Shown here one piece after another: positions 1-29,120 of a DNA stretch of 31,619 bases. Every line of letters starts with the position of its first letter. Position 1 is the first letter of the stretch. This DNA comes from Candidatus Competibacteraceae bacterium (lineage in GTDB: Bacteria > Pseudomonadota > Gammaproteobacteria > Competibacterales > Competibacteraceae): positions 2,881 through 34,499 of the forward strand of contig DAIUCA010000002.1 of the NCBI GenBank assembly GCA_036846405.1, read 5' to 3'. A program made the position numbers and the translations under genes. Under the pieces are notes generated by a model that saw only the letters and a program-made list of their open reading frames with translations, did no database searches and was not told the DNA's origin.

Positions 1-737
1 AAGGGAATGGCTTCGGCACCTAATTCGGTTACGGCTGCCGCGATTAATGGGCCATTCGCGTCGTAGAGTTTTGCCGGTGCTAATGGCGTCCCGCCGGCGC
101 TAATTTCGTTGCCTGTGGAGAAAATCGCCACTCGGGGCTTGCGATACACCACAACTTGGGTTTTACCGAGGGCGGCTAATACCCCAATTTCGCGGGCGCC
201 AATCACTTGATTTTGAAATAAGGCGGTTTCGCCAGTTAATAAATCGCTGCCGGCATGGGCGACAAATTGGCCAGCGGCAACGGGCTTCAAAACCGCCAAC
301 CGCTGGGTGTTTTCGTCCCATTCCGTGTGTTCGATCATGAGTACGGCGTCGGCACCCCGAGGCAATACGCCCCCTGTCGCGATGGCTAATGCTTTGCCTA
401 ATTCGACGCTTTCGACGGGCACAATCCCGGGGGTTAAAATTTGTTCGCCGACCTGCAAATAAATCGGCTGCATTTCATTCGCCCCTGCCGTGTCTTGGGC
501 ACGTAATGCGAAGCCATCCACATTACTGCGATCAAAGGCCGGCACATCGATCTCGGAAATCACATCGGCGGCTAATACACGCCCTAATGCGTGGGCTAAT
601 TCGACGGATTCGGCGCCTAATGGCTGGGGCTGAATTGCCGCCCAAAACTGCGCAAAGGCCGCTTCGGGCTGGGCGATTTGGAGAAACTGTTCTTGTTGCA
701 AAGCGTTGCGAAAGGGCGGCGTCATCACAGTGGGCAT
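1..737 (-). CDS. moeA: Molybdopterin molybdotransferase MoeA, N-terminal ~245 aa (C-terminal part lies beyond the window start)
   Basis: Reverse-strand translation from ATG (complement of 735-737) gives MPTVMTPPFRNALQQEQFLQ...VPAFDRSNVDGFALRA...TGGVLPRGADAVLMIE...RVAIFSTGNEISAGG...YDANGP. This matches the MoeA N-terminal and MoCF-binding motifs, including the STGDEL/STGNEI-type motif. The ORF is open to position 1. It is absent from the supplied ORF track only because it runs off the window edge. Confidence 0.8.
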   Translation of the reverse strand, partial: MPTVMTPPFRNALQQEQFLQIAQPEAAFAQFWAAIQPQPLGAESVELAHALGRVLAADVISEIDVPAFDRSNVDGFALRAQDTAGANEMQPIYLQVGEQILTPGIVPVESVELGKALAIATGGVLPRGADAVLMIEHTEWDENTQRLAVLKPVAAGQFVAHAGSDLLTGETALFQNQVIGAREIGVLAALGKTQVVVYRKPRVAIFSTGNEISAGGTPLAPAKLYDANGPLIAAAVTELGAEAIP

Positions 738-771
738 CCGAATGGAGAAAAACCGCAGATAGCGCGGTTAA

Positions 772-1887
772 TTAGTAGGCATAAAAGGGCAATGCGTGGC
801 CAGCAGCAAATCCCTCCGCCGCCGCCTCCACGAGCACAAAGCCATCGGCCCGCGTGAGGGTGGTCAGCCGCGCCGCCGCCCCCGCTGCCAGGGGCCACAA
901 GCCGTCGGGTCGCCGCTGCACGCGCCAGTATTCGACCCAACCCGGCGCCGAACTAAGCTTTTTAAGCAGGGGCAACGGCGTGGCCGACGGCGGCGGACTC
1001 GCCAACCATCGCCGCAGCAACGGCAACACCAGAACATCCAAACCGCAGCAGGTCGCAACCGGCGCACCGGGCAACAGCACCACCGGCACACCATCCCATT
1101 GGCCGACGCCGAGGGAAATCGCCGGCTGCACCGCCGCGCCGTGCAGCGCCAATTCCCCGTGGCGGGCCAGCCAATGGGGCCAATCGGTGGGCGATTGCCC
1201 GTCGCTGCGCCCCACGGTGATCCACAGATCCGGCCCGGTGGTAGCCATCGTCGGCTGGGCGACGGTGGGCAATACCTCGGCACCGACCGCTTCACAGCGC
1301 GCCGCCACTAAAAGGCCGCTGCCGTCGGGGTGGTAATCGCTCACCACCTGCACGCGCGGGCGCCGAACCACGTCGACCTGGGCCATCTGCTGTTGCACCA
1401 ACCAGGGCAAATCCACCGCCCGCAGCCGATGTCCCGCCGCGAAAACGGGATCGCCGACCCCACCCTCGCTGTGGGGCAACAGCACATTTTCGGACACGGC
1501 CACATCCGCGCGCAGGAGCGCCATCGAACCGACAATCGCAAACCCGTCGGTAGGCAATACCGCGTCGGCGCCGCGGGGCAACGGGGCGCCGCTGGCGATG
1601 GGCAGGGCGGTGGTCGGCGCCAACGGTTCGGTAGACGCGACGAGACGCAGGGGCAGGGGTTGTAAATCGCTTGCGCCCAGGGTGTCGGCGCTACGCACCG
1701 CCAGACCGTTAGTCATCGCGACGGCGTGGGGTGGCCAGGATTGGGGCTGGCCCACGGCGACGGCGAGTCGGCGACCCACAAGCGATGGCGCGACAGCGTG
1801 GGTTTCGCTCGCCAACGACGGCGAAAAGCGTTGCAGATAGGTCTGCAACGCGGCCAGGTCGTGGAGCGTCGCGAAGGGTGACGCCAA
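772..1887 (-). CDS. MoeA-like paralog (molybdopterin molybdotransferase fold) with a degenerate active-site motif
   Basis: 371-aa ORF with MoeA-like architecture along its length (ASGAPLPRGADAVLP, RPRVQVVSDYHPDGSGLL, C-terminal MoeA_C-like beta region). The conserved STGDEL-type motif is replaced by SDYHPDGSG. It sits 34 nt upstream of the canonical moeA and 5 nt downstream of the preceding gene, so it looks co-operonic. Confidence 0.6.
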   Translation of the reverse strand: MASPFATLHDLAALQTYLQRFSPSLASETHAVAPSLVGRRLAVAVGQPQSWPPHAVAMTNGLAVRSADTLGASDLQPLPLRLVASTEPLAPTTALPIASGAPLPRGADAVLPTDGFAIVGSMALLRADVAVSENVLLPHSEGGVGDPVFAAGHRLRAVDLPWLVQQQMAQVDVVRRPRVQVVSDYHPDGSGLLVAARCEAVGAEVLPTVAQPTMATTGPDLWITVGRSDGQSPTDWPHWLARHGELALHGAAVQPAISLGVGQWDGVPVVLLPGAPVATCCGLDVLVLPLLRRWLASPPPSATPLPLLKKLSSAPGWVEYWRVQRRPDGLWPLAAGAAARLTTLTRADGFVLVEAAAEGFAAGHALPFYAY

Positions 1888-1892
1888 TGGAA

Positions 1893-2573
1893 TTATTCCG
1901 AATCGCTCTCAGTCGCGGGCGTCGGCGATGGGATCGCCAATGGAGTCGGCGGCGGGTTTGCTGCCGCCGCCGCTGCGGCGACCTGTTCGGCTTTCTGCTT
2001 CCACGAGAACACGGTTTTGTAATTCACGTTCAGATCGCGGGCCACATTGGTCACTGACTCACCGGCAGCAATCCGCTCGAGGGCCTCCTGCTTCTGCTCA
2101 GCGGGGTGGGTCATGCGACCACTGCGGCTACGGGCCGATTCTTCAACTACTGGCGGCGCAGCCACCTTGGCGGCTTCCGCCCCGTCGGCGGAGGCACTCC
2201 GTCGGCGACCGTTGGTGGACTTGGGTTTGGGCGGTTTTGCCGATGCAGCTTCGGCGACAACCGACGGTGGCGGCGTCACCTCAGCGGCGGTGGACGAGGC
2301 GCCCGTGTGAAAGGTTTCGAGCCGCGTCAATCGCTGATTGAGCTGCTGAAATGCCTGGTCGTAACCATCCAATCGGTCGGCGATTTGCTTGAGCGTCGTC
2401 GCAATATCCACGGACGGCTGATCGCTTTCTGGAATCTGGGGCACGATTTTGAACGACGCGGACATGTTGGCTAAATCCCGCGCCATGGCTTCGAGATTGC
2501 TCTGGGTGAGCTTGGTTGCCGTAAACATTCGCTCGAATAGCGATTGCCAGTTGTCATCTTGATGAGTGGTCAT
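1893..2573 (-). CDS. Hypothetical protein: N-terminal coiled-coil region, Ala/Pro-rich linker, C-terminal helix-turn-helix (IS3-OrfA/HTH_Tnp_1-like)
   Basis: 226-aa ORF. The N-terminus has heptad-like segments (LKQIADRLDGYDQAFQQLNQRLTRLETF). The middle is a low-complexity A/P/S-rich stretch. The C-terminus (ESVTNVARDLNVNYKTVFSWKQK) has the xSVxxVARxLxVxxxTVxxW pattern of IS3-OrfA-type HTH domains. It lies between the GTPase gene and the MoeA-like gene in one apparent operon. Confidence 0.5.
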   Translation of the reverse strand: MTTHQDDNWQSLFERMFTATKLTQSNLEAMARDLANMSASFKIVPQIPESDQPSVDIATTLKQIADRLDGYDQAFQQLNQRLTRLETFHTGASSTAAEVTPPPSVVAEAASAKPPKPKSTNGRRRSASADGAEAAKVAAPPVVEESARSRSGRMTHPAEQKQEALERIAAGESVTNVARDLNVNYKTVFSWKQKAEQVAAAAAAANPPPTPLAIPSPTPATESDSE

Positions 2574-2620
2574 AGAACGGCCTGCTTTGAGATTTTAAGA
2601 AATGATGAGACCACGGTCTG

Positions 2621-3739
2621 TTAGCGTTTGCGCTGAAAGTAGTGGCTCAACAGATTCTGCGCCGATTTGAATTGGTCGCCATACTGATTTTGCAGATTTT
2701 GCAGATTCGGTACACCACCGGCTTTGATGGTTCTGAAATAGGTCGCTAAAACTTGGCCCAGGGCGTAGGTACTCGCCGCCGTCAATAGGGCCGACATGGC
2801 GGTGCCGTAAGCCGGAATGAGCTTTAACAATTGCCGCCGCGCGAGCTGCGCTAACAGCCCCATGCCCACGACCCCGGCGAGTTCCGTGAGGGTCTGGCGG
2901 TCGAAGGGCTGGTCGTAATGTTTCGCCAGGTCTCGGGCCATGTGGGTTTGAATGCCGACGACCACGGGTAAATCCACCGCCGGCACGGGCACGGCCCCTG
3001 CCACCCCTGCCATGAGGGCATGGCGCAAAATGGTTTGGGCCACTTGATCGCGATGGGTCGCTTGAATCGCCAAACCCGCCGTCGGCAACAGCCGTTCGAT
3101 TGCGTCGATCAATGTCGGCAAGCCGTAATCGGGCGGCGTAAAACCCTCTTCTGGGGGCGTAAAGTCGATGGCCACAAACTCGGCATTAAATCGACTAAAC
3201 CGCTGGCGCTGTTCGGCGAGTGCGGCGGCCAGTTCGCTGGGCACGGGAACCGTTAACGGCCAGGGGTCGTAGGGATAGGGCTGGAGATGGTCGGTGTTGG
3301 GGGGATAGCCCTCGTGGAGACTGGTGAACACCACCAACAAAGGCCAATGGGGCTGCTGTCGCCGAATCTGGGCCAGCGCCGACAGCACCGGGTCTTGGGC
3401 CAAATCCATCACCCGCGCTACCACCATGAGTAGTTGGGACTGTTGCGCGAATTGGGCCAGGTCTTCTGTCGGGTCGTAATTCGCTTCGCCTAGACCGCGG
3501 GTGTCGAGAAATCGCAGCAATGGCGTGTCGGCGTCGGGGAAGTCGTAGAAGGCTGCCGTGCGGGTACAGGGCTGGAACAGGTCGCCGATGGTGGCGCGCG
3601 GATCATCGGTAAGCGCCCGCACGATGGAACTTTTCCCCGCTTGGGTTTTGCCCAATAACCACATGACCGGCGGTTGCAACGGCGCTGCGCGCGTCACTGG
3701 TGCCGCGTTTTCTTGGCGCTGTTTTAGCCATTCCCACAT
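2621..3739 (-). CDS. GTP-binding protein: N-terminal P-loop GTPase (HSR1/MMR1-like) fused to a C-terminal DUF697 (YcjF-like) domain
   Basis: 372-aa ORF. G1 P-loop is LLGKTQAGKSSIV and G3 is DTRGLGE. The C-terminal half (VAGAVPVPAVDLPVVVGIQTHMARDLAKHYD...AYGTAMSALLTAASTYALGQVLATYF) is typical of DUF697. A GGGGA Shine-Dalgarno lies 8 nt upstream of the ATG at 3739. Confidence 0.7.
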   Translation of the reverse strand: MWEWLKQRQENAAPVTRAAPLQPPVMWLLGKTQAGKSSIVRALTDDPRATIGDLFQPCTRTAAFYDFPDADTPLLRFLDTRGLGEANYDPTEDLAQFAQQSQLLMVVARVMDLAQDPVLSALAQIRRQQPHWPLLVVFTSLHEGYPPNTDHLQPYPYDPWPLTVPVPSELAAALAEQRQRFSRFNAEFVAIDFTPPEEGFTPPDYGLPTLIDAIERLLPTAGLAIQATHRDQVAQTILRHALMAGVAGAVPVPAVDLPVVVGIQTHMARDLAKHYDQPFDRQTLTELAGVVGMGLLAQLARRQLLKLIPAYGTAMSALLTAASTYALGQVLATYFRTIKAGGVPNLQNLQNQYGDQFKSAQNLLSHYFQRKR

Positions 3740-3846
3740 AAATTATTCCCCATTTCTGAATTGGTTAGTTGACAGAGACAGTTCAGTCGGGATTAACCCC
3801 GTTAACCGTGAACTGCGGTGCATTCACATCCATAGGAGAATAGTCA

Positions 3847-4194
3847 ATGAAAATCGTCTTCGCGTTGTTTGCACTCGCCGCATTAAGCGGCTGCGCCACG
3901 GCCCCCAACGGCCAGACCGCCATGACAGACCAAGGACGCACGGCGCTAGGTACCGTTGCCGGCGGGGCGTTAGGCGGCTATTTCGGCAACCGCATTAGCG
4001 ACGGCTCGCCCACGGGCACGGCCATCGGCGCGATTGGCGGCGCAGCGGTGGGCAACGCCCTGTTCCAACCGTCCTACCCGAGTGGCTATCAGAACCAGAA
4101 CAGCTATCGCCAGGGCAACTATCGTCGGGGCGGCTACAACCGGTCCTACTACGGGCGGCGCGGGGCCTGTCGCGGCCAGGGCTGCTGGTACTAA
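3847..4194 (+). CDS. Glycine-zipper (Gly-zipper 2TM / SlyB-Pcp-like) outer-membrane lipoprotein with a Tyr/Arg/Gly/Asn-rich low-complexity tail
   Basis: Lipoprotein signal peptide with lipobox LSGC (MKIVFALFALAALSGCA). Glycine-zipper core GTVAGGALGGYFGN...GTAIGAIGGAAVGNALF. C-terminal YPSGYQNQNSYRQGNYRRGGYNRSYYGRRG. An AGGAGA RBS lies 7 nt upstream of the start. Confidence 0.7.
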   Translation: MKIVFALFALAALSGCATAPNGQTAMTDQGRTALGTVAGGALGGYFGNRISDGSPTGTAIGAIGGAAVGNALFQPSYPSGYQNQNSYRQGNYRRGGYNRSYYGRRGACRGQGCWY

Positions 4195-4383: not shown

Positions 4384-5349
4384 ATGAAAATGCTGTTGTC
4401 TGTGGCCCTCGCGGCCTTCGCTTTTGTCCCCCTGGCCCATGCAGAAAATCCCAGCAACTGGCCTAGGAGCTTCAAAGTCGCCACCGCCTCCCAGGGGGGC
4501 ACCTACTTCGTGTACGGCTCCGGCTGGGCCAACCTGGTGAGCGAAACCCTGGGCATTTCCGGTGGTGCCGAAGTCACCGGCGGGCCGGTGCAGAATGCGG
4601 CCCTCATCCAAACCGGCGACGCAGAATTCGCCCAAGTCACCATGGGACCCGCATTTGATGCGTGGAATGGCGAAAGCGAGCTGGCTCCCGGGTTGCCCCA
4701 CGACAAGTTGCGGGCCCTATTCCCCATGTACCAAACCTCGTTTGCATTCATTTCCCTCAAAAGCTCGGGCATCGCCGCGATCCAAGACCTGGAAGGCAAG
4801 AGCTTTGGCATCGGCCCTGCCGGCGGCACCTCGGGAACCTATCTGCCGCGCTTTCTGCAAGCCCTCGGGGTGAGTGGCGATATGCGTTTTGGCGGCGCTT
4901 CCGATCAAACCGGACAGCTGCAAGACGGCCTTTTAAGCGCTTTTGGCTTCGCAGCAGGCCATCCCATTCCGGCGTTTAACCAACTCGAAGCCCAAATGGA
5001 TGTGAATATCTTCGCGTTTAGCCAGGCCGAAGCCGAAAAACTCGCCACCCTGTTTCCCGTCGTGGTCGATCCCATTCCGACGCAATTCTACAAATCCGTG
5101 ACCGGCCCCGCCGTGAGCGTTTCCATGTGGAACTTTGCCGTCGTTAACGCCGATCTGCCGGATGATTTTGTCTACGCCGTCACCAAAGCCGTGATGGAAA
5201 ATCACGAACGCATGGTGGGCATCCACAAGGCCGCCGTCGAAACCCTGCCGGAAAACGCCTTAAAAAATACCTTCTTGCCCTATCACCCAGGCGCCGCCCG
5301 CTGGTACGCGGAACACGGCATCACCCTGCCCTCGAAACTCCTGCCGTAA
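4384..5349 (+). CDS. TRAP transporter solute receptor, TAXI family (periplasmic substrate-binding protein)
   Basis: 321 aa with signal peptide MKMLLSVALAAFAFVPLAHA and TAXI-family motifs (ATASQGGTYFVYGSGWANLVSE, FAFISLKSSGIAAIQDLEGKSFGIGPAGGTSGTY). It is immediately followed by the cognate fused permease. Confidence 0.85.
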   Translation: MKMLLSVALAAFAFVPLAHAENPSNWPRSFKVATASQGGTYFVYGSGWANLVSETLGISGGAEVTGGPVQNAALIQTGDAEFAQVTMGPAFDAWNGESELAPGLPHDKLRALFPMYQTSFAFISLKSSGIAAIQDLEGKSFGIGPAGGTSGTYLPRFLQALGVSGDMRFGGASDQTGQLQDGLLSAFGFAAGHPIPAFNQLEAQMDVNIFAFSQAEAEKLATLFPVVVDPIPTQFYKSVTGPAVSVSMWNFAVVNADLPDDFVYAVTKAVMENHERMVGIHKAAVETLPENALKNTFLPYHPGAARWYAEHGITLPSKLLP

Positions 5350-5370
5350 ACCCCGTCCCCCGCGTTCTCC

Positions 5371-5403
5371 GCGCCGCTGCCCTCAAAGCAGCGGCGTTTT
5401 TCG
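5371..5403 (+). terminator. Intrinsic terminator/attenuator hairpin between the TAXI receptor and the permease gene
   Basis: gccgctgc-cctcaaa-gcagcggc 8-bp stem followed by gTTTTTcg. Partial intra-operon terminators after the highly expressed binding-protein gene are typical for SBP-dependent transporters. Confidence 0.45.
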
Positions 5404-5440
5404 TTGGGGTAATCCATTAATAAAATAAGAGTTTTCCACC

Positions 5441-7648
5441 ATGACCAATCCCGCGCATTTGGACGGCCCCCTCATTGCCCACAACGTGGATGAAGAGCCC
5501 GTTGCCGATAACGAACGCCTGTTTAGTGGCTGGCAACTGCACCTGTTTTTCGCCTTTGGCGTGGTGTACGTGCTGTTTCACCTACTCGCCCTCAACGTCT
5601 ACCCCATGGAAACCTGGACCTTCCGCCTGCTCCACGTGGCGGGGGCCTTGGTGTTGGGTTACGCCCTCATGAGCGCTGCCCGACTCGATCACGCACCTGC
5701 CCCACTGGCCGCCCCCGCCCGCGGTTTCCTCGGACTCAGCGCCGTCCTCGTGGGATACAGCGCGCTGTGCGTCATCGGTGCCTGGGCGTGGATGCTCACC
5801 AACCAGGGCGGTCGTCCCCCCGCCTGGCTGCTGGCGTACCTCGGCCCCACCCTCGTCGCTGGCGTGGGCATAGCGATCATCCTGAGTTGGCTGGCACGCA
5901 GTCCCAAAGACCGCGTGGCAGGCGCTGATTGGGTGCTACTCCTCGCGTCGGTAGTCGTCATGGGGTTTCTGCTGTTCAGCATGAATCACTTGGCGCTGCG
6001 CATGCGGGCCGGCACGCCCTTTGCCGACCTCCAGAACGCCTATGTGGCCCTCGCCGGCGTTGTGCTCATTTTGGAACTCACCCGCCGCGTGGCCGGTATG
6101 GCCCTCGTCGTCGTCACAACCGTGTTTTTGGCCTACACCTTCCTCGGTCCCTATCTGCCCGGGTTTCTGAATCACACCGGCTATGACTGGAAGCGTTTCT
6201 TCACCTACCTCTACACCGACAACGGCATTTTGGGCGCGACCACCGCCGTTTCCAGCACCTACATCATCCTGTTCATCGTGTTCGCCTCGTTTCTGCAAGC
6301 CTCCAAGGTGGGCGACTACTTCGTGAATTTTGCCTTTGCCATCGCGGGTCGTTCTCGCGGGGGGCCCGCGAAGGTCGCCGTGTTCGCGTCCGGCCTCATG
6401 GGCATGATTAACGGCACCTCCGCAGGCAATGTGGTCGCCACGGGGAGCCTCACGATTCCCCTAATGAAGCGCGTGGGCTACGCGCCCCAATCGGCCGGCG
6501 CCATCGAAGCTGCCGCCTCCACCGGTGGCCAAATCATGCCGCCCATCATGGGGGCCGGCGCCTTCATCATGGCGGAGGTCACCGGCATTCCGTATTCGGA
6601 ATTGGTGATCGCCGCCATCATTCCGGCAACGCTCTACTTCGTGTCGATTTACTTCATGGTCGATCTCGAAGCCGCCCGCACGGGGATGCGCGGCATGCGC
6701 GAGGACGAGCTCCCCAAACTGCGGCCACTCCTGGGCCAGCTCTATCTGTTCCTGCCCATCGTGATGCTCATGGGGGCCCTCTTCGCCGGCTATTCGGTGA
6801 TCCGCGCCGGCACCTACGCCACCATCGGCGCCATGGTGGTGAGTTGGTTTGCCCCCCACAAAATGACGCCCAAGGGCATTCTGATCGCCCTCGAATTGGC
6901 CGCGCGCATGTCGATTCAAATCATCGTCGTCTGCGCCTGTGCCGGCATCATCGTCGGCGTAATTTCCCTCACCGGGGTGGGATCGCGGTTTTCGTCCATG
7001 TTGCTCGGCATCGCCACCAGTGGCGCTTTTTCCGCCGACATCGGCCTATTACTCGCCATGTTCTTTGCCATGATGATCGCCATCATTCTCGGCATGGGCA
7101 TGCCCACCACCGCCGCTTACGCCGTAGCCGCCGCCGTCGTCGCCCCCGGACTTGCCCAAATTCTGCTGCCTACCTTTGCTGAAAACGCGAATCCCGAACG
7201 ACTGTCGCTGCTCACCGCCCACTTCTTCGTGTTCTATTTCGCCGTCGTATCGGCCATTACGCCCCCGGTCGCCCTCGCGTCCTACGCGGGCGCCGCTATT
7301 GCCGGTTCGAATCCCATGGCCACCTCGGTGACCTCCTTCAAGCTCGGCCTCGCCGCGTTCATCGTGCCGTTCATGGCCTGCTACAGCCCGGCCATTCTGA
7401 TGGAAGGCAACCTCCTCGCCGTTCTGCAAGTCGCGATTACCTCCACTGTCGGGGTGTATCTGCTGGCCGCCGCCGTCCAAGGCTATTACTTCGGCGCCAC
7501 CGCCTGGTGGATGCGGCTACTGCTGCTCGTCGGCGCGCTCGCCATGATTAGCGGCGGCTGGGTCACCGATCTTCTGGGGATCGCCATCACCATCGGGCTG
7601 TTTTTGCTGCAAAAACCCGCTAAATCCTCCTCGGTGCCGACGACCTAA
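5441..7648 (+). CDS. TRAP transporter fused permease (DctQ-like 4TM + DctM-like 12TM), TAXI-associated type
   Basis: 735-aa highly hydrophobic polytopic protein with many predicted TM segments, directly downstream of the TAXI receptor. Its length and N-terminal small-permease-like region fit the fused DctQM permeases of TAXI-TRAP systems. Confidence 0.85.
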   Translation: MTNPAHLDGPLIAHNVDEEPVADNERLFSGWQLHLFFAFGVVYVLFHLLALNVYPMETWTFRLLHVAGALVLGYALMSAARLDHAPAPLAAPARGFLGLSAVLVGYSALCVIGAWAWMLTNQGGRPPAWLLAYLGPTLVAGVGIAIILSWLARSPKDRVAGADWVLLLASVVVMGFLLFSMNHLALRMRAGTPFADLQNAYVALAGVVLILELTRRVAGMALVVVTTVFLAYTFLGPYLPGFLNHTGYDWKRFFTYLYTDNGILGATTAVSSTYIILFIVFASFLQASKVGDYFVNFAFAIAGRSRGGPAKVAVFASGLMGMINGTSAGNVVATGSLTIPLMKRVGYAPQSAGAIEAAASTGGQIMPPIMGAGAFIMAEVTGIPYSELVIAAIIPATLYFVSIYFMVDLEAARTGMRGMREDELPKLRPLLGQLYLFLPIVMLMGALFAGYSVIRAGTYATIGAMVVSWFAPHKMTPKGILIALELAARMSIQIIVVCACAGIIVGVISLTGVGSRFSSMLLGIATSGAFSADIGLLLAMFFAMMIAIILGMGMPTTAAYAVAAAVVAPGLAQILLPTFAENANPERLSLLTAHFFVFYFAVVSAITPPVALASYAGAAIAGSNPMATSVTSFKLGLAAFIVPFMACYSPAILMEGNLLAVLQVAITSTVGVYLLAAAVQGYYFGATAWWMRLLLLVGALAMISGGWVTDLLGIAITIGLFLLQKPAKSSSVPTT

Positions 7649-9905: not shown

Positions 9906-10906
9906 GTGCCGAACACGCGCGGTTTGGCGTAAATGTCCAGGGTGGGCGCGGTGATATTCATGAGCAGCACCGCAAAGGCGACGGCGTCCGGATAGCTGCC
10001 GTAGCTGCGGATGACAAAAATCAGTGTCCCCACGCCGATGCCGAAAATCACCCGTCCCAGGGGCGTGGTGCTGGCAGAAACCGGGTCGGTGGCAATGAAA
10101 AACGCGCCAAAAATCGCCGCCCCACTGAACACATGAAACAGCGCCGACGGATACCGCTGGGGTTCGAGCAGGTGAAACACCGACGCCAACAGCAGTAGCG
10201 TCAACAAAATGCTCAGCGGAATGCGCCAGTCGGCGGCTTTGGTCCACACCAACCAGACACCGCCCGCGAGAAACGCCAGATTTACCCATTCCCAGCCCGA
10301 CGCACCCAAGACGCCAAAGGGCAGTTGACTCAGTAAGGCGTCGCTTACTGGCCCCGATCGCGTAGCGGTGCGCCACACATCCAGGACAGTCGCCCCCGTA
10401 ATGCCGTCGGGTTGGCTAAAGAAAATCGCATTAATTGCGCCGTTCAGCGTGACCCATTCGCCGCCAGCGGTAGTCGGTAAGGGCCATTGGCTCAAAGCTT
10501 GGGGAAACGCCACTAGCACCATCACATAGCCCACCATGGCGGGATTGAACGGATTAAAGCCCAAACCGCCGTACAGCTGTTTGGCAATGACGATGGCGGA
10601 AAACACGGCGATGGTCGAAATCCAGGCCGGCAACAGGGGCGGTAAGGAAATGGCGAGCAACCAGGCGGTCACCAGGGCACTGTTATCGCGCAAGGGCCGC
10701 AAGGAACGCTGGCGCAACAGCAGCATGGCCGCTTCAAACAGGACAGCGAGAAAACTCACCCACAGGATTTGGATGATAATGCCCCAGCCAAACAGTAAGA
10801 ACAGTAAGGCAACCCCCGGTAAACAGGCAATCACCACCCGCAACATGACCCACGACACGGAATCCGTCGGATCAATGTGGGGTGAATCTTGTAGGGCGAA
10901 ACGCAT
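9902..10906 (-). CDS. rnfD: Ion-translocating oxidoreductase complex subunit D (RnfD)
   Basis: 334-aa polytopic membrane protein with the RnfD/NqrB-like motif ...TGATVLDVW... and FMN-attachment-type region SGAAIFGAFFIATDPVSASTTPLG. Confidence 0.85.
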   Translation of the reverse strand: MRFALQDSPHIDPTDSVSWVMLRVVIACLPGVALLFLLFGWGIIIQILWVSFLAVLFEAAMLLLRQRSLRPLRDNSALVTAWLLAISLPPLLPAWISTIAVFSAIVIAKQLYGGLGFNPFNPAMVGYVMVLVAFPQALSQWPLPTTAGGEWVTLNGAINAIFFSQPDGITGATVLDVWRTATRSGPVSDALLSQLPFGVLGASGWEWVNLAFLAGGVWLVWTKAADWRIPLSILLTLLLLASVFHLLEPQRYPSALFHVFSGAAIFGAFFIATDPVSASTTPLGRVIFGIGVGTLIFVIRSYGSYPDAVAFAVLLMNITAPTLDIYAKPRVFGT

Positions 10907-10907
10907 T

Positions 10908-12467
10908 TTAGGCTTTCTCTCCTTGATTATTCGGAGTTTCCCGACTTTCTACCGTCTTGTCGCTCAGAACGGGATTTTTCGCCACAGAATGTGTCGCCAC
11001 GGGTTTCACGGCGGCTTTCTTTTCCCGCTGCTTGGCGTCTTTCTCCGCCTGTTCCTTCGCTTGGCGGGTTTGCCGATTTTCATGGCGTTGACGGGCTAAA
11101 TCCGCTTTGCGCTTGTCTTTTTCCTTCGTCCACAGCTCGCCCTTTGCGTAACGATAGTAAGAAACCAGGGGAATTTGGCTCGGACAGACCGCTGCACAGC
11201 AACCACATTCGATGCAATCAAACAGGTGATAGTCGGATAATTTGTCGAATTCCCGACTTTTGGCGTGCCAGTACAGTTGCTGGGGCAGCAAATGGGACGG
11301 ACAGACCTGCACACATTGGCCGCAGCGAATGCACGGGTCGGGATCGCGGGGCGGACGAGCCAGTTGCGCCGTCGCCAAGAGGCAATTCATTCCCTTGGTA
11401 ATGGGAATCTCATCGGTAAGGAGCGCGAATCCCATCATAGGACCGCCCACTAACAAGCGTTTCACATTCGGGGTGTAACCGCCGCAAGCCGCCACCAGGT
11501 CGCTAACGCGGGTGCCCAAGCGCACCTCAGCCACCTGGGGCTGGTTTACCGCGTCGCCGGTCAGCGTAATCAGCCGCGAAATCAACGGTTTACCGTGAAC
11601 AGCGGCTTGGAACAGGGCGTAGGCCGTGCCCACGTTGTGGCAAATCGCCCCGATGTCCACGGGCAACTTACCGCTGGGCACCTCGCGGCCGGTAAGGATT
11701 TTGATGAGTTGTTTCTCGCCGCCGGTGGGGTAAATCGTGGGGACAGCCACCACGGTGATTGCGAAATCGGGCGGCAGCACCGCCGCGGCGACGGCGGTTT
11801 CCATGGCGCGAATCGCAGCGGGCTTGCTGTCCTCAATGCCGATGAGCGCCCGCGCGATACCCAAGGCCCGCAGCATAAAGGCGACGCCGACCACCACCTC
11901 TGCCGCCCGCGTGGTCATGAGCATTTCGTCGCAGGTGATATACGGCTCGCACTCGGCGCCGTTGACGATCAACAGCTCCAGGGGATGCACCGAATTGGGC
12001 ACGGCATTCGCCGCCAGCTTCACCGCCGTGGGAAACGCCGCGCCGCCCAAACCCACCAAGCCGCCGTCCCGCGCCCGCGCCTGAATCGCGGCGGGATCAG
12101 CATCAAGCGCCAGCGGCGGCAAGGGCGCCACCCATTCATCGCGGCCATCCGTATCAATCGCGATACAAGGCGCGGTGAGGTTGGAAGGATGAGGAATCGC
12201 GTGGTGTTCGATGGCACTCACAATTCCCGAACTGGGCGCATGAATCGGGGCGCTGATGTAGCCATCAGCCCGCGCGATCACCTGTCCCGTCTGTACAAAA
12301 TCTCCCATGTTGACGACGGGTTTAGCGGGTTGGCCGATGTTTTGTTGTAGCGGCACCACCAACTGGGCGGGAATGGGGAGGATGCGCAGGGGCTGGCCGA
12401 GGGAATCGGTCTTGTGGGGATCGAGGTGCAGTCCGCCAAAGGGGGTGGTGAGTGGGATGGCGTTCAT
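10908..12467 (-). CDS. rnfC: Ion-translocating oxidoreductase complex subunit C (RnfC), with two 4Fe-4S ferredoxin motifs and a Lys/Glu-rich C-terminal tail
   Basis: 519 aa. Motifs GGAAFPTAVK and LIVNGAECEPYITCD. Two CxxCxxCxxxCP motifs (CIRCGQCVQVCP, CIECGCCAAVCP). Low-complexity KEKDKRKADLARQRHENRQTRQAKEQAEKDAKQREKK tail. Confidence 0.9.
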   Translation of the reverse strand: MNAIPLTTPFGGLHLDPHKTDSLGQPLRILPIPAQLVVPLQQNIGQPAKPVVNMGDFVQTGQVIARADGYISAPIHAPSSGIVSAIEHHAIPHPSNLTAPCIAIDTDGRDEWVAPLPPLALDADPAAIQARARDGGLVGLGGAAFPTAVKLAANAVPNSVHPLELLIVNGAECEPYITCDEMLMTTRAAEVVVGVAFMLRALGIARALIGIEDSKPAAIRAMETAVAAAVLPPDFAITVVAVPTIYPTGGEKQLIKILTGREVPSGKLPVDIGAICHNVGTAYALFQAAVHGKPLISRLITLTGDAVNQPQVAEVRLGTRVSDLVAACGGYTPNVKRLLVGGPMMGFALLTDEIPITKGMNCLLATAQLARPPRDPDPCIRCGQCVQVCPSHLLPQQLYWHAKSREFDKLSDYHLFDCIECGCCAAVCPSQIPLVSYYRYAKGELWTKEKDKRKADLARQRHENRQTRQAKEQAEKDAKQREKKAAVKPVATHSVAKNPVLSDKTVESRETPNNQGEKA

Positions 12468-24024: not shown

Positions 24025-27000
24025 ATGACTGCCCTCGATTCTGCGGCCGCTCTGTTTGCGACCGCGCTGAAACTTTCCGAAGACGACGCCGCGCATCTCG
24101 TCGCCACCGCGTCCCTGCGGCTCACCCCGCCGGGCACCGTCGTCATCCGCGAAGGCGATCAGGCGGAAGCGGCTTACATCGTGGCCCGTGGCCTGTTGCA
24201 GGTGCAGGTGCGGGACAGCGCCGGTCTACCGCGCGTCGTCGCCCGCCTAGAAGCTGGCACGCTGTTTGGCGAACAGGCCCTGTTGCCGGGCCGTTCCCAG
24301 CGCAACGCCACGGTCATCGCCGTGGAAGAGTCCCAGGTGTGGACGATTCCCGCCGCCGCCTTCCGCCAACTGCTCGGGCGTCAACCCCAGTTGGCGGCGC
24401 TGTTGGATGCGGAAGGTCGGCGCCAAGCCCTGGGACGTCTCGCGCGCCAGTCGAATTTGCTGTCGGCGCTCACGGATGCGTTGCCCACCCACGAAGGCTT
24501 AATCGTGCGCCACCTGCGGGATAACGAGCGGCTCTTTGCGGAAGGCGACCCCGCCGATGCCGCGTACGTGGTGCTGCGGGGGGTGTTGTTGGTGCAGCGC
24601 CCGAACGACCAGGGCCAGCCGACCACGCTCAGTCGCCTGGGCGCGGGCGAGTTAGTGGGCGAATTGGCGGTGTTAGAGAACCAAAGCCGCGCCGCGAGCG
24701 TGGTGGCGAGTGGCAGCGTCGAGGTGTTGGGGATTCCGGCCGAGGCGTTTCGCCAGGCCCTAGCCCAATTGCCCGATTTAGCCGCCCTCACCGAGACCTT
24801 AAAGGCGGTGTATCGCCTGCCCCAGCGGGGACTCGTGGTGCGCCACAGCGGTTATTGGGAAGGGGAACCCTGTGTGGTGTGCGCGTTTCGGCTCCCCGAC
24901 GACCGCCGCGCTGCCGCCCGCCGACTTCTGCGCCAGGCGGTCACCGATCTCAGCATCACCGACGCCGAACCCAGCCAAACGCTCCGCAGCCCCGACGGCC
25001 AGGTGGAACTGCGCCTGCATCGCCAGGTGATCGTCGGCATCACTGCCCCGACGGAATGGCCCGATTTGAGCGTCATGGCCGGTTGGCTGTTGGACGGTCG
25101 GCCCCTCGAACCCTGGCGGCGCATCGCCTTCGAGACCCGGGGCACCTGTTTACTCGCGCCGCCGCCGTCATTTGGGCGGGACGACGAGCGGGTATGCCAT
25201 TGCTTGGGCACCACCGTGGGCGCCGTGCGCGCCGCCATCAGCATGGGCGCCCACACGGCGGAAGCCGTGGGCCACGTGACCGGCGCTGGCACCGTGTGTA
25301 GCGGCTGCATGGGGCCCTTGGCCCTGTTGATTGGCCGCGAGGATTACACCCTCTGTCGGCTGTCCACCCGCTCCCTCGACGACCACCAGCTGTTGGTGAG
25401 CCTCGCCCCGTTGGGCGGCATGCTCACCCCCACCCAGGCCGGCCAGCAGGTGCAGGTGGAAGCCCTGTGCGACGGCGCGTGGGTCGCCCGACGCTATTGG
25501 GTGGTGAATCCACGGGCGGCGGATCGCTACGACATCGCCGTGACCCGCGAACAGGATGACCCGTTATCCCATTGGTTTTACCAAGCGCCCGAAGGCAGTT
25601 TGGTGCGGGTGTCGCCGCCCCTGGGGAAACCGATTGACCTGCAAAATGGCCGTCCCCTGGTGTATTTGGTGGGCGATGCGGGCGCGGTGGTGGCCATCGC
25701 GACGGTGCGCAGTCAGCCGCTGCGGCCCACCACGGTGATTTACAGCGCCGCCCTGGCCCGCGCGGCCTGGCTGCCGGAACTCAAGCAGCTGGCGTCGCTG
25801 CATTTCATCGAGCTGCATTTCCACGACAGCACCGAATACACCCTCACGCCCATCGAAATCGTCGGTCATCTCAGTCGCCAGCCCGATGCGGAGCTGGTGG
25901 TGTGCGGCCCGTCGGCGCTCACCGACACCGGTCTCCAAGCGGTCGCCCAGGTGCCATCGGTTCAAGTGCAGATCGTGCGCCTGGAAACCGCCAGCCAGCC
26001 GCTCACGGATCTGCCGCTGCCGCCCCTGCGCCCACTGCCCTGCCCAACCCTGCTGCCGGGGCCGTCGACTCCCAACCTGGTCACCGCCGTCGGTACGCCC
26101 AGGGAAGAAACCGAGGGGTTTTTACAGCGATTTTTCGTCGAAAACCGCGTGCCGACCGCGTTTAGCGCCCGTTGGGACGAGGTGCAACCCCAGCTTTTGA
26201 CGGAAAGTGGCTATCAACCCACCCCCGAAGAGCTGGCGTACGGGGTGCGTATCGCCTGGCGTCAAAGCCGCAACGCCTTTGAACGGCCCTTTTGGCCCGA
26301 TGTGGCCGTGCGCGACGTGCGCCATCTCCATCACCCGGACGACGTGGCCCACGCGGTGTTCACCCATTTGGAGCTGGCTTACAACGGCGGCGCCGTGCGG
26401 CCTCTGGTGACCCTGTTCCAGGCAGACCGGGCCAATCGTCCCGGCCCACGGCTCTGGAACCCCGCCCTCCCCCTGTTCAGCAGCCAACGCCATCCCCAAC
26501 AGGCGGCCTTTGTGGCGGCAATCACCAAATTGGGTTGGCACTCCAGCGGCGACCTCTACGAAGTGCTGCCGCTGGTGGTGGAATGCGCGGGCTTTGCGCC
26601 GCAGATTTACCCCGTTCCCCCGGAAAAGGCCCTGGCGGTGGCCCTGGTGCATCCAGAACACCTGTGGTTCAAGACCCTAAATTTGCGGTGGAACACCCTG
26701 ATGGCCGTGGCCGACCAGCCCCTATGGCTGGCGGGGCAGGGGGATCGCAGCCCGCTGGTGAGCGGCGTGCAGTTGAGTCGGGCGGTGGTGGCGTGGTTAC
26801 AGGAGGCGGAAGGGGAATCGCTGCTGCTGCGGATTGCCGGTTATCTGCGCCTCGACACCCAACGAGACGCCAGTTTGTGGCGCTTAAAAGCCATGACCAC
26901 CTTGGAAGAGGCCGTGTTGTGGTCCTTTGAACGGGCAGGCGTCACCGTGGTGGAAACCTACAGCGCGGCTCGGCGGTTTGCGGCCTTTGTGGCCGCAGAA

Positions 27001-27129
27001 ACTGCCGCCAATCGCCCCCTGTGCCATCGAGACCAGTTGCAATTGCCGCTCTTGGGTAGCTTGGGCCTCGCGTGGGATCAATGGCCGAATTACGCCTGGA
27101 GTCCTGCATTTACGGCGCCTGCCCCCTAG
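24025..27129 (+). CDS. Multidomain redox/signalling protein: 2x cNMP-binding (CAP_ED) + BFD-like [2Fe-2S] + FNR-like FAD/NAD(P) reductase + C-terminal NOS-oxygenase-like domain lacking the heme-thiolate Cys
   Basis: cNMP domains roughly aa 20-125 and 155-250 (GTLFGEQALL...RNATVIAVE, GELVGELAVL...RAASVVAS). BFD-like 4-Cys motif C391-x-C393...C425-x2-C428 (VCHCLGTTVGAVRAAISMG...TGAGTVCSGCMG). FNR-like module with RRYWVV (RxYS-type) and LVYLVGDAGAVVAIATV. The C-terminal ~340 aa align with NOSoxy blocks: AWRQSRNAFERPFW (vs AWRNSNRCIGRLFW), VRPLVTLF (vs IRPTITIF), KLGWHSSGDLYEVLPLVV (vs ELGWRGERTDFDLLPLIF), LWRLKAMTTLEEAVLWSFERAGVTVVETYSAARRF (vs [35 protein letters not shown]). AGGAG RBS 7 nt upstream. 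Confidence 0.8.
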   Translation: MTALDSAAALFATALKLSEDDAAHLVATASLRLTPPGTVVIREGDQAEAAYIVARGLLQVQVRDSAGLPRVVARLEAGTLFGEQALLPGRSQRNATVIAVEESQVWTIPAAAFRQLLGRQPQLAALLDAEGRRQALGRLARQSNLLSALTDALPTHEGLIVRHLRDNERLFAEGDPADAAYVVLRGVLLVQRPNDQGQPTTLSRLGAGELVGELAVLENQSRAASVVASGSVEVLGIPAEAFRQALAQLPDLAALTETLKAVYRLPQRGLVVRHSGYWEGEPCVVCAFRLPDDRRAAARRLLRQAVTDLSITDAEPSQTLRSPDGQVELRLHRQVIVGITAPTEWPDLSVMAGWLLDGRPLEPWRRIAFETRGTCLLAPPPSFGRDDERVCHCLGTTVGAVRAAISMGAHTAEAVGHVTGAGTVCSGCMGPLALLIGREDYTLCRLSTRSLDDHQLLVSLAPLGGMLTPTQAGQQVQVEALCDGAWVARRYWVVNPRAADRYDIAVTREQDDPLSHWFYQAPEGSLVRVSPPLGKPIDLQNGRPLVYLVGDAGAVVAIATVRSQPLRPTTVIYSAALARAAWLPELKQLASLHFIELHFHDSTEYTLTPIEIVGHLSRQPDAELVVCGPSALTDTGLQAVAQVPSVQVQIVRLETASQPLTDLPLPPLRPLPCPTLLPGPSTPNLVTAVGTPREETEGFLQRFFVENRVPTAFSARWDEVQPQLLTESGYQPTPEELAYGVRIAWRQSRNAFERPFWPDVAVRDVRHLHHPDDVAHAVFTHLELAYNGGAVRPLVTLFQADRANRPGPRLWNPALPLFSSQRHPQQAAFVAAITKLGWHSSGDLYEVLPLVVECAGFAPQIYPVPPEKALAVALVHPEHLWFKTLNLRWNTLMAVADQPLWLAGQGDRSPLVSGVQLSRAVVAWLQEAEGESLLLRIAGYLRLDTQRDASLWRLKAMTTLEEAVLWSFERAGVTVVETYSAARRFAAFVAAETAANRPLCHRDQLQLPLLGSLGLAWDQWPNYAWSPAFTAPAP

Positions 27130-27276: not shown

Positions 27277-28455
27277 ATGCCGCTGCCCATGCGCCGATTG
27301 ACTGTTCTTGCCGTTCACCTGCTGTGTTTGTTGCCGCTGCTGTTTGGGGTTGCCCACGCCCAAAGCTGTGCCACCAGTGCGGGGCGTTGGTTTGATCCCA
27401 CGCTGCAAATTCCGCGAGACGCCGCGCCGTTGTTCACCGCCATGGCGCGCCGCGCCGTGGTGCTGCTGGGCGAACAACACGACCAGGCGAGCCACCACCG
27501 ATGGCAGCTCCACACCCTCGCCGGGCTGTACGCCCACCAGCCGAACCTGGTCATTGGCCTAGAAATGCTGCCCCGCAGCGTGCAGCCGGTGCTGGATCGC
27601 TTCAGCCGTGGCGAATTGGATGAAGTGGCGTTTTTGGCCGAAAGCCGCTGGCAAGAGCATTGGGGCTTCGATACGGAGCTGTATTTGCCGATTTTGCGCT
27701 TTGCCCAAATGCATCGCTTGCCCCTAGTCGCCCTCAACGTGGATCGCGATTTGATTAGCGAAGTCGCCCGCGTGGGCTGGGCCAAGGTGCCGATGGAACG
27801 GCGGGAAGGGCTTGGCGATCTGCTGCCGGCCACCCCTGCCTATCGCGCCGAATTGGCCCAGGTGTTTGGCCACAAAAATCCCGATCATCAACAAGACGAG
27901 GCGGCGTTTGATCGCTTTGTCGAAGCGCAACTCACCTGGGATCGGGCCTTTGCCGAGGGATTGATTCAGGCCCGTCGTGCCCACAACAACGCCCTCGCCG
28001 TGGGGTTGGTGGGCCGCTTCCACGCCCAATTTGGTCACGGCGTTGGCCAACAGCTTTTAGATTTGGGCGTGTTAGACGGCGCGACCCTGTTGCCGGTCCC
28101 GGTGAGCGACTGCGAACAGGTGGTGCCGGGTCTGGCCGATGCGGTGTTTTTATTAGATGACCACCAAGTGCTCGCCGAAGCCGACGGCGAACCGCTGCGC
28201 TTGGGGGTACAGGTCGCGGACGGCGCCGACGGCGTGTTAGTGCAAACCGTGGTGAGCGACAGTGTGGCCGCCGCCGCCGGCCTGCAAACCGACGATGTGA
28301 TCGCCCAAGCGGCGGGCCTCGACATTCGACAAGCCACAGAATTGCAGGCGCTGGTACGGCGCCAAGCCCCGGGCACCTGGCTACCGCTCACCGTCAAACG
28401 GCGCGGCCAGGTGCTGGATTTAGTGGCTAAATTCGCCGCCAAACCCCTGCCCTAA
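27277..28455 (+). CDS. ChaN-family (DUF399/Tiki-like) haem-binding periplasmic protein with C-terminal PDZ domain
   Basis: Signal peptide MPLPMRRLTVLAVHLLCLLPLLFGVAHA. ChaN hallmark VVLLGEQHD plus downstream LVALNVDRDLI. The C-terminal ~90 aa (GVQVADGADGVLVQTVVSDSVAAAAGLQTDDVIAQAAGLDIRQATELQALVRRQAPGTWLPLTVKRRG) form a PDZ domain. Confidence 0.65.
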   Translation: MPLPMRRLTVLAVHLLCLLPLLFGVAHAQSCATSAGRWFDPTLQIPRDAAPLFTAMARRAVVLLGEQHDQASHHRWQLHTLAGLYAHQPNLVIGLEMLPRSVQPVLDRFSRGELDEVAFLAESRWQEHWGFDTELYLPILRFAQMHRLPLVALNVDRDLISEVARVGWAKVPMERREGLGDLLPATPAYRAELAQVFGHKNPDHQQDEAAFDRFVEAQLTWDRAFAEGLIQARRAHNNALAVGLVGRFHAQFGHGVGQQLLDLGVLDGATLLPVPVSDCEQVVPGLADAVFLLDDHQVLAEADGEPLRLGVQVADGADGVLVQTVVSDSVAAAAGLQTDDVIAQAAGLDIRQATELQALVRRQAPGTWLPLTVKRRGQVLDLVAKFAAKPLP

Positions 28456-28478: not shown

Positions 28479-29120
28479 ATGACGCAACGACTTGTCTTGC
28501 TCTCGTTCACCGCCTTGCTGCTCGGCGTGGCGGTGGCGCTATTTCTGCCGCGCCCCACGGCCCCAGACATCGGCGGTTTTATTCTGCAACCGCCTAAACC
28601 GCTCCCCGAGTTTGTCTTAACCGGCGACGACGGCCAGCCGTTCACTCCCGATAGCCTGCGGGGCCAATGGCAATTTCTGTTCTTTGGCTACACCTTCTGT
28701 CCGGACATCTGCCCCATGGCCCTGCTGGAGTTCTCCAAAGTGCAAAAAGCCTTGGCTGAACAAGGGGTTACCAATGTGGGGTTTCGGTTTATTTCCGTCG
28801 ATCCCGCCCGCGATACCCCGGCGCGGCTCCACGAATTTGTCGGGTATTTCAATCCCACCTTCGCGGCGGCGACGGGCGATCGGGCAGAAATCGACCGTTT
28901 AGCCCAATCGGTGGGCGCGGTGTATCGAATTAACGAACCCGAACCGGGCAAGAGTTATTACCTGGTGGATCACTCGGCGACGGTGATGATTCTGAACCCC
29001 GAGGGCCAACTGGCCGCCGTCATGTCGCCGCCTCACGACCCGCCCACGGTGACGAAGGATTTCATGGCGCTTCGACGGTTTTACGAAGCCTCCCAAGGAT
29101 TCTTTGCCCAAGGGCGGTAA
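28479..29120 (+). CDS. SCO1/SenC family copper chaperone (thioredoxin fold)
   Basis: N-terminal membrane anchor; CxxxC copper-binding motif in FFGYTFCPDICPMAL; conserved His in YYLVDHSATVMILNPEG. Confidence 0.85.
   Translation: MTQRLVLLSFTALLLGVAVALFLPRPTAPDIGGFILQPPKPLPEFVLTGDDGQPFTPDSLRGQWQFLFFGYTFCPDICPMALLEFSKVQKALAEQGVTNVGFRFISVDPARDTPARLHEFVGYFNPTFAAATGDRAEIDRLAQSVGAVYRINEPEPGKSYYLVDHSATVMILNPEGQLAAVMSPPHDPPTVTKDFMALRRFYEASQGFFAQGR

Follow-up and report, generated by a model that had tools for sequence, protein, structure and literature searches.

MoeA is a dimer, and its active site is built from domains III and IV of one subunit and domain II of the second. Here we describe a 31,619-nt stretch of a Competibacteraceae metagenome-assembled genome (MAG), referred to below as the window, in which a degenerate MoeA paralog is encoded directly upstream of an intact MoeA fused to a PBP_like domain (MoeA-PBP). 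Earlier work has described MoeA-PBP proteins, MoeA paralogs that are inactive (Glp) and genomes carrying multiple MoeA copies. Bacterial MoeA-PBP branches with archaeal MoeA1, its co-occurrence with TupA, which binds tungstate, is 86%, and a role in tungsten insertion has been proposed for it in which the PBP domain channels the oxyanion (Megrian et al. 2025, PMC11733289). In Desulfovibrio vulgaris, the tungsten cofactor of Aor requires two non-redundant MoeA-like proteins, DVU0951 (MoeA with PF12727) and DVU2990 (MoeA-like), whose cofitness is 0.85, and 0.90 in another strain (Trotter et al. 2023, PMC10102598). Several MoeA paralogs also split tungsten (W) and molybdenum (Mo) labour within one genome in Methylorubrum extorquens (PMC13197769, where Campylobacter is cited as well). 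Two questions remain open: how W is chosen over Mo at insertion, and why many genomes have two moeA-like genes that are not redundant (PMC10102598, PMC11733289).

The locus in the window differs from each of these systems. The published account of MoeA-PBP (PMC11733289) does not mention a degenerate MoeA directly upstream, and the words tandem and synteny are absent from its text; in the literature that we searched, no description was found of a clade of inactive MoeA proteins always directly upstream of MoeA-PBP in Proteobacteria. Like DVU0951 and DVU2990, the window genes encode two distantly related MoeA-like proteins, one of them with PF12727. The Desulfovibrio genes have non-consecutive locus tags and presumably lie apart, whereas those in the window are adjacent, a comparison made by description only. 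Further, PMC10102598 is silent on the active site of DVU2990, whereas the window partner is clearly without catalytic residues. MoeA1 and MoeA2 paralogs are each catalytically competent and act separately, whereas here one member of the pair is predicted to be inactive.

The MoeA-PBP fusion and its degenerate neighbour

Four consecutive minus-strand genes occupy positions 1-3739 of the window, as a preliminary description had reported from their open reading frames (ORFs; 2621-3739, 1893-2573, 772-1887 and 1-737):

2621-3739, minus strand: GTPase-DUF697 gene, 372 amino acids (aa), first gene of the same-strand run, Pfam MMR_HSR1 and DUF697
1893-2573, minus strand: helix-turn-helix (HTH) gene, 226 aa, HTH_Tnp_1 at residues 154-209
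772-1887, minus strand: degenerate MoeA paralog gene, 371 aa, TTG start, with the Pfam and NCBIfam scores given below
1-725, minus strand: 5' part of the MoeA-PBP_like fusion, about 241 codons of a 654-aa gene that is truncated by the window start

The ORF at 1-737 exits the window at its start and has a strong Pfam MoeA_N match. It had been called a canonical MoeA, which is right in that it is an intact MoeA-type insertase, but this was a partial view of a longer fusion. The full-length copy was read from a 22-kb contig that is 100% identical to the window (L002; GCA_964530395.1, contig CAZHAP010000031.1), where the complete gene at 10047-12011 encodes MoeA_N, MoCF_biosynth, MoeA_C and a C-terminal PBP_like domain (PF12727), the last of these lying beyond the window edge. 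In this domain order, in its catalytic residues and in the top NCBIfam match of the window fragment (PRK14498, 255 bits), which fits the fusion architecture, the protein resembles bacterial MoeA-PBP and archaeal MoeA1. The gene probably starts at the second ATG, at 725, because this codon aligns with the start codon of the orthologue in a sister genome (a MAG named "uncultured Candidatus Competibacteraceae bacterium"; L001, the same contig as L006), where the ATG at 737 aligns with ACG. The catalytic residues are all intact in the window protein, and all 20 MoeA-PBP sequences that were aligned retain D59, T100, D142, STG[DN]E, N205, D228, GGxSxGxxD, KPGKP and S371 (E. coli MoeA numbering).

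The paralog exceeds the Pfam cutoffs for MoeA_N and MoeA_C and falls below that for MoCF_biosynth (13.7 against 26.6). It is also below every curated NCBIfam cutoff of MoeA type, including PRK10680 (70.6 against 440), MoeA_actino (76.8 against 560), Glp (NF045515; 93.7 against 475) and PRK14498 (124 against 534). When aligned to E. coli MoeA, with the numbering checked on the E. coli sequence, its active-site positions read as follows:

D59: N in the window paralog
T100: S
D142: E
S184-T-G-D-E188: S-D-Y-H-P, followed by a 14-aa deletion
N205: S
D228: within a 10-aa deletion
G252: R
S254: D
D259: T
K279-P-G-K-P: Q-P-A-I-S (K279Q, K282I)
S371: A
D203, G251, P298, P301 and R350: retained

The paralog has lost the Mg2+, molybdopterin-AMP (MPT-AMP) and oxyanion ligands of domain III; D228 is an active-site Mg2+ ligand in MoeA (PMC9458074). 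An AlphaFold2 model (pLDDT 93, pTM 0.85) predicts the four-domain MoeA fold, and its top Foldseek matches, 1UZ5, 1G8L, gephyrin E, Cnx1E and C. glutamicum Glp, extend over the full length with TM of 0.7-0.84. Alignment and model thus confirm the earlier observation of a MoeA-fold paralog carrying SDYHPDGSG in place of an STGDEL-type motif, and the protein is predicted from its residues to be catalytically inactive. The public NCBI annotation gives it only 314 aa from an internal start (L002 9056-10000), and given this shorter gene call an exact look-up of the 371-aa sequence fails. The TTG start is supported by a 371-aa orthologue that aligns from residue 1.

Recurrence and co-divergence of the pair

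A search of GTDB genomes, one for each species, with the complete MoeA-PBP as query yielded 26 loci with 41-75% identity, from Gammaproteobacteria (Chromatiales, Ectothiorhodospiraceae and unclassified MAGs) and Planctomycetes. Upstream genes were read by tblastn and ORF extraction, loci with enough upstream sequence were counted as informative, and two more contexts were added through protein matches (an Azospirillum-like contig and the metagenomic locus L035). A MoeA-like gene lies directly upstream of MoeA-PBP in 22 of the 24 informative loci, which span Gammaproteobacteria, Alphaproteobacteria and Planctomycetes; the two without it are both planctomycete. The pairing, first thought to be unusual, is therefore a recurrent one. 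The distance from the end of the MoeA-like gene to the start of MoeA-PBP ranges from -8 nt (overlap) to about +290 nt, most loci having fewer than 75 nt; in L007, L023 and L035, the stop codon of the first gene overlaps the start codon of the second. Clustering of the flanking ORFs revealed nothing beyond the pair that is conserved across loci, and Pfam scans of 20 immediate neighbours returned unrelated functions. L035 (7978-14961) carries a row of genes consisting of fdhD, a degenerate MoeA, MoeA-PBP, a third canonical MoeA and NAD-type formate dehydrogenase (FDH) subunits, a gene order that ties the pair, at this locus, to the predicted maturation of a Mo/W-bis-pyranopterin guanine dinucleotide (bisPGD) enzyme.

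Every proteobacterial upstream partner lacks STGDE, D228, S254 and K279/K282, and two planctomycete partners retain most catalytic residues. PGAP gives proteins of the partner clade the names "molybdopterin molybdotransferase MoeA", "Glp" or "molybdopterin-binding protein", even though the proteobacterial ones are without catalytic residues, which is an annotation problem. Conservation of at least 90% is seen in 53 alignment columns of the 16 gammaproteobacterial partners, those of E142, D259 and R350 among them. At E. coli position 350, every MoeA-PBP has M, L or P and the upstream partners have an invariant R, so that the two patterns are complementary.

A phylogeny of the two MoeA copies, proposed in the preliminary description, places them in separate clades. 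A bootstrapped neighbour-joining (distance) tree recovers MoeA-PBP and the partners (31 sequences) as two clades, each with 100% support; within the partner clade, the degenerate proteobacterial sequences, the window paralog among them, group together at 97%. The distance matrices of partners and MoeA-PBP are correlated (Mantel r = 0.84, a value reached by 0 of 2000 label permutations), with the partners being the more divergent of the two (mean p-distance 0.58 against 0.38).

Possible function of the pair and rival readings

We consider it fairly probable that the two genes represent a conserved pair of one inactive and one active MoeA dedicated to W or Mo insertion, and that the GTPase and HTH genes are neighbours outside this module. 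The degenerate paralog and MoeA-PBP, with its cytoplasmic PBP-like domain, would cooperate in inserting the metal during pterin cofactor synthesis, the metal would probably be tungstate, and the most likely form of the complex would be a heterodimer. A heterodimer is favoured because the genes are adjacent, the proteins co-diverge and the loss of domain III residues is one-sided. Since MoeA sites combine domains III and IV of one subunit with domain II of the other, such a complex would have one working site, and its inactive subunit could serve as a scaffold or regulator. The link to Mo/W selectivity is a reasonable one, given that the partner is a MoeA-PBP fusion and these have been tied to tungstate in the literature. 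A more far-reaching version, which we offer tentatively and with more doubt than confidence, is that MoeA-PBP is an obligate asymmetric heterodimer with a dedicated inactive MoeA, and that this is a widespread pseudoenzyme-enzyme pair in W (or Mo) insertion. If true, this would explain the need for two non-redundant moeA-like genes, as in Desulfovibrio. The co-diverging pair makes the single-site heterodimer a directly testable hypothesis. A further possibility is that the pair recruited the GTPase and the HTH protein in Competibacteraceae.

Several points weigh against a dedicated W/Mo-inserting pair with unrelated neighbours. The domain II residues that the inactive partner would be expected to supply are poorly kept, T100 being variable among partners in the site alignment and D59 being N in the window paralog. 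Neither tupA nor a Mo/W enzyme gene was found in the window or on the 22-kb L002 contig, whereas the MoeA-PBP genes surveyed previously mostly occur with TupA (PMC11733289). The Mantel correlation is also expected under plain vertical co-inheritance. In Methylorubrum extorquens, deletion of moeA3 or moeA5, adjacent genes that might represent such a pair, had no effect on a W-dependent FDH (PMC13197769). The short conserved gaps in Competibacteraceae may leave room for a functional tie of the GTPase and HTH genes to the pair in this lineage.

Alternatively, the degenerate MoeA could be a repurposed scaffold with no part in cofactor synthesis, similar to Glp in cell division, and its adjacency to MoeA-PBP a product of tandem duplication; we regard this as unlikely. 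Glp of Actinobacteria (PDB 8BVE/8BVF) is also a MoeA-fold paralog that coexists with an intact MoeA, and its eroded active site (PMC11733289) is paralleled by the losses described here. Glp is the second-best NCBIfam match of the window paralog as well as one of its top fold matches, PGAP uses this name for the planctomycete partners, and a ZapG-like gene lies upstream at one locus. However, the match to the Glp model reaches 93.7 of the 475 bits of its cutoff, and the partner clade is distinct from Glp and separate from E. coli-type MoeA, with planctomycete members that keep the active site. Unlike Glp, the window paralog has neither GlpR nor FtsZ in its context, and partners of its type are always adjacent to MoeA-PBP; strict adjacency and co-divergence across phyla are not expected of an unlinked function. 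That the paralog is a functionless duplicate in decay is very improbable. Its domain III contains two deletions, and between the two Competibacteraceae lineages its nonsynonymous divergence (dN) is 0.45, against 0.17 for MoeA-PBP, which is faster than its neighbours; its synonymous divergence (dS) of about 2.4 is saturated, and dN/dS is thus not usable as a ratio. Yet dN is far below this saturated dS, the 371-aa ORF is intact in both lineages, more than 20 lineages have intact partner ORFs, the fold prediction is a confident one, and the 53 conserved columns persist. The sequence comparisons indicate that the paralog is under purifying selection that is relaxed yet real, and it is not a decaying pseudogene.

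The remaining alternatives concern the two upstream genes. The preliminary description suggested that all four genes could form a regulated or specialised Mo/W module, of which the W/Mo link of the MoeA pair stands as reasonable and the four-gene unit does not. Such a unit, with delivery or gating of the metal by a membrane GTPase and control of the operon by the HTH protein, is in our assessment improbable. GTPases act as metallochaperones in other systems. The genes share a strand, and the reported gaps of 47 nt (GTPase to HTH) and 5 nt (HTH to paralog) agree with the ORF coordinates; the third, given as 34 nt from the ATG at 737, is probably about 46 nt with the start at 725. The corresponding gaps in the sister genome are 45, 15 and 33 nt, the gene order there is the same, with 47-75% protein identity, and a consensus scan found no terminator-like or sigma-70-like sites on the minus strand inside any of the gaps. 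The two lineages, however, have six more genes in common downstream (chorismate-binding, HAD, aminotransferase IV, zf-CHCC, GT9 and methyltransferase), identities across the shared genes being 47-86%, and the conservation of the four genes is for this reason ordinary synteny, which does not count as separate evidence that the four are coupled. Only in these two lineages do the GTPase and HTH genes adjoin moeA: about 20 other MoeA-pair loci have no GTPase or HTH match within 7 kb. A gene-neighbourhood comparison for the GTPase, named in the preliminary description as a check, found the family in five contexts outside Competibacteraceae, beside a dynamin-like/MMR_HSR1 GTPase of 487-541 aa or a PspA cluster and never with moeA. 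For the GTPase, this is the outcome that the preliminary description had named as refuting the four-gene unit. Two metagenome scans, one with the HTH alignment and the other with the paralog alignment, gave no relatives and no further instance of the four-gene arrangement. Less probable still is that the HTH gene is a domesticated or remnant accessory gene of an IS3/IS66-type transposase, inserted between the GTPase gene and the moeA pair. The top Pfam and NCBIfam matches of its product are HTH_Tnp_1, IS66 TnpA and IS3, but all scores are below curated NCBIfam cutoffs, no transposase ORF adjoins the gene, and no inverted repeats of insertion sequence type flank it. It also holds the same position in both lineages and has a strongly conserved N-terminus outside the HTH. 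We therefore return to the reading of a MoeA pair preceded by GTPase and HTH genes that probably share its transcript but not its function.

Transcription, upstream genes and the wider locus

Shared transcription of the four genes in the Competibacteraceae lineage, as suggested earlier, is plausible because the short gaps are kept in the sister genome and terminators were not found in them. A single weak minus-strand terminator-like site was identified by consensus scan at 265-247, within the MoeA-PBP gene. A small hairpin in the gap between the paralog and MoeA-PBP was rejected as a terminator, given that its stability does not differ from shuffled sequence (z = -0.39) and that it is missing from the sister genome. 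Upstream of the run are the following features:

3740-3846, no strand: divergent intergenic region of 107 nt between the GTPase gene and the Gly-zipper lipoprotein gene
3847-4194, plus strand: Gly-zipper (YMGG / Rick_17kDa) lipoprotein-like gene with an LSGC lipobox, divergent from the GTPase gene

If the four-gene run has a single promoter, region 3740-3846 is the sole possible site for it. The consensus scan did not find a sigma-70 consensus there, GGGGA occurs about 8 nt 5' of the GTPase ATG, and there was no match to a molybdenum cofactor (Moco) riboswitch or another Rfam family. The lipoprotein gene and its divergent arrangement are kept in the sister genome, with about 65% identity.

The GTPase has Pfam scores of 30 bits for MMR_HSR1 and 36.5 bits for DUF697, and a single borderline hydrophobic segment at residues 241-265. 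In 12 homologues, the G1 motif GKTQxGK[ST] (here GKTQAGKS), the G3 motif DTRG and an HEGY motif are invariant. As a candidate TRAFAC-type GTPase, the family has no NKxD (G4) motif and a conserved TxLHEGY in its place, and the TIGR00231 score is under cutoff. We found 1319 homologues, with 45-50% identity in Beggiatoa, Methylobacter, Planctomycetes and Desulfobacterales. In Beggiatoa alba (L003), the gene follows PspA and DUF2170, and in other contexts a second, larger GTPase gene lies beside it:

L004, 9392-11017
L036, 7242-8705 (L036/L037)
L038, 3646-5175

The latter arrangement suggests a two-GTPase membrane system made up of the GTPase-DUF697 protein and its larger dynamin-like neighbour. 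E. coli YcjF (DUF697) and this family are alike in having a P-loop NTPase and a hydrophobic C-terminal DUF697 domain, and the adjacency of homologues to PspA or dynamin-like GTPases suggests a membrane-related role. The Competibacteraceae protein differs from the family in being shorter, with N-terminal and 11-aa internal deletions, in having no adjacent second GTPase gene, and in its placement upstream of moeA genes. A reading as a defence system was rejected, the PADLOC matches being weak and limited to the P-loop (LeoA/LeoBC) and a short stretch in the DUF697 region (PDC-S29).

In the HTH protein, 45 conserved N-terminal aa are followed by a low-complexity middle part and then by a C-terminal HTH of HTH_Tnp_1 type (37.3 bits), and the protein could be a local regulator. 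Its only full-length relatives are the L001/L032 orthologues (47% identity), which represent one other lineage among 1.8 billion representative proteins. A word-based search found the protein itself only; an exhaustive HMMER search added one orthologue, and its remaining matches span the HTH segment alone.

Beyond the lipoprotein gene, the cluster is adjoined by a TAXI-type TRAP transporter (4384-7648, plus strand) composed of an NMT1_3 solute-binding protein (321 aa) and a fused DctM-type permease (735 aa). In the sister genome, two DNA methyltransferase genes occupy this position instead. Further along the window, a plus-strand ORF of 1034 aa (24025-27129) combines two cyclic-nucleotide-binding domains, a BFD-like [2Fe-2S] domain and a nitric oxide synthase (NOS) oxygenase domain, an unusual multidomain bacterial NOS. 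It is followed on its 3' side by a ChaN haem-binding/PDZ protein gene (27277-28455) and then by SCO1/SenC (28479-29120).

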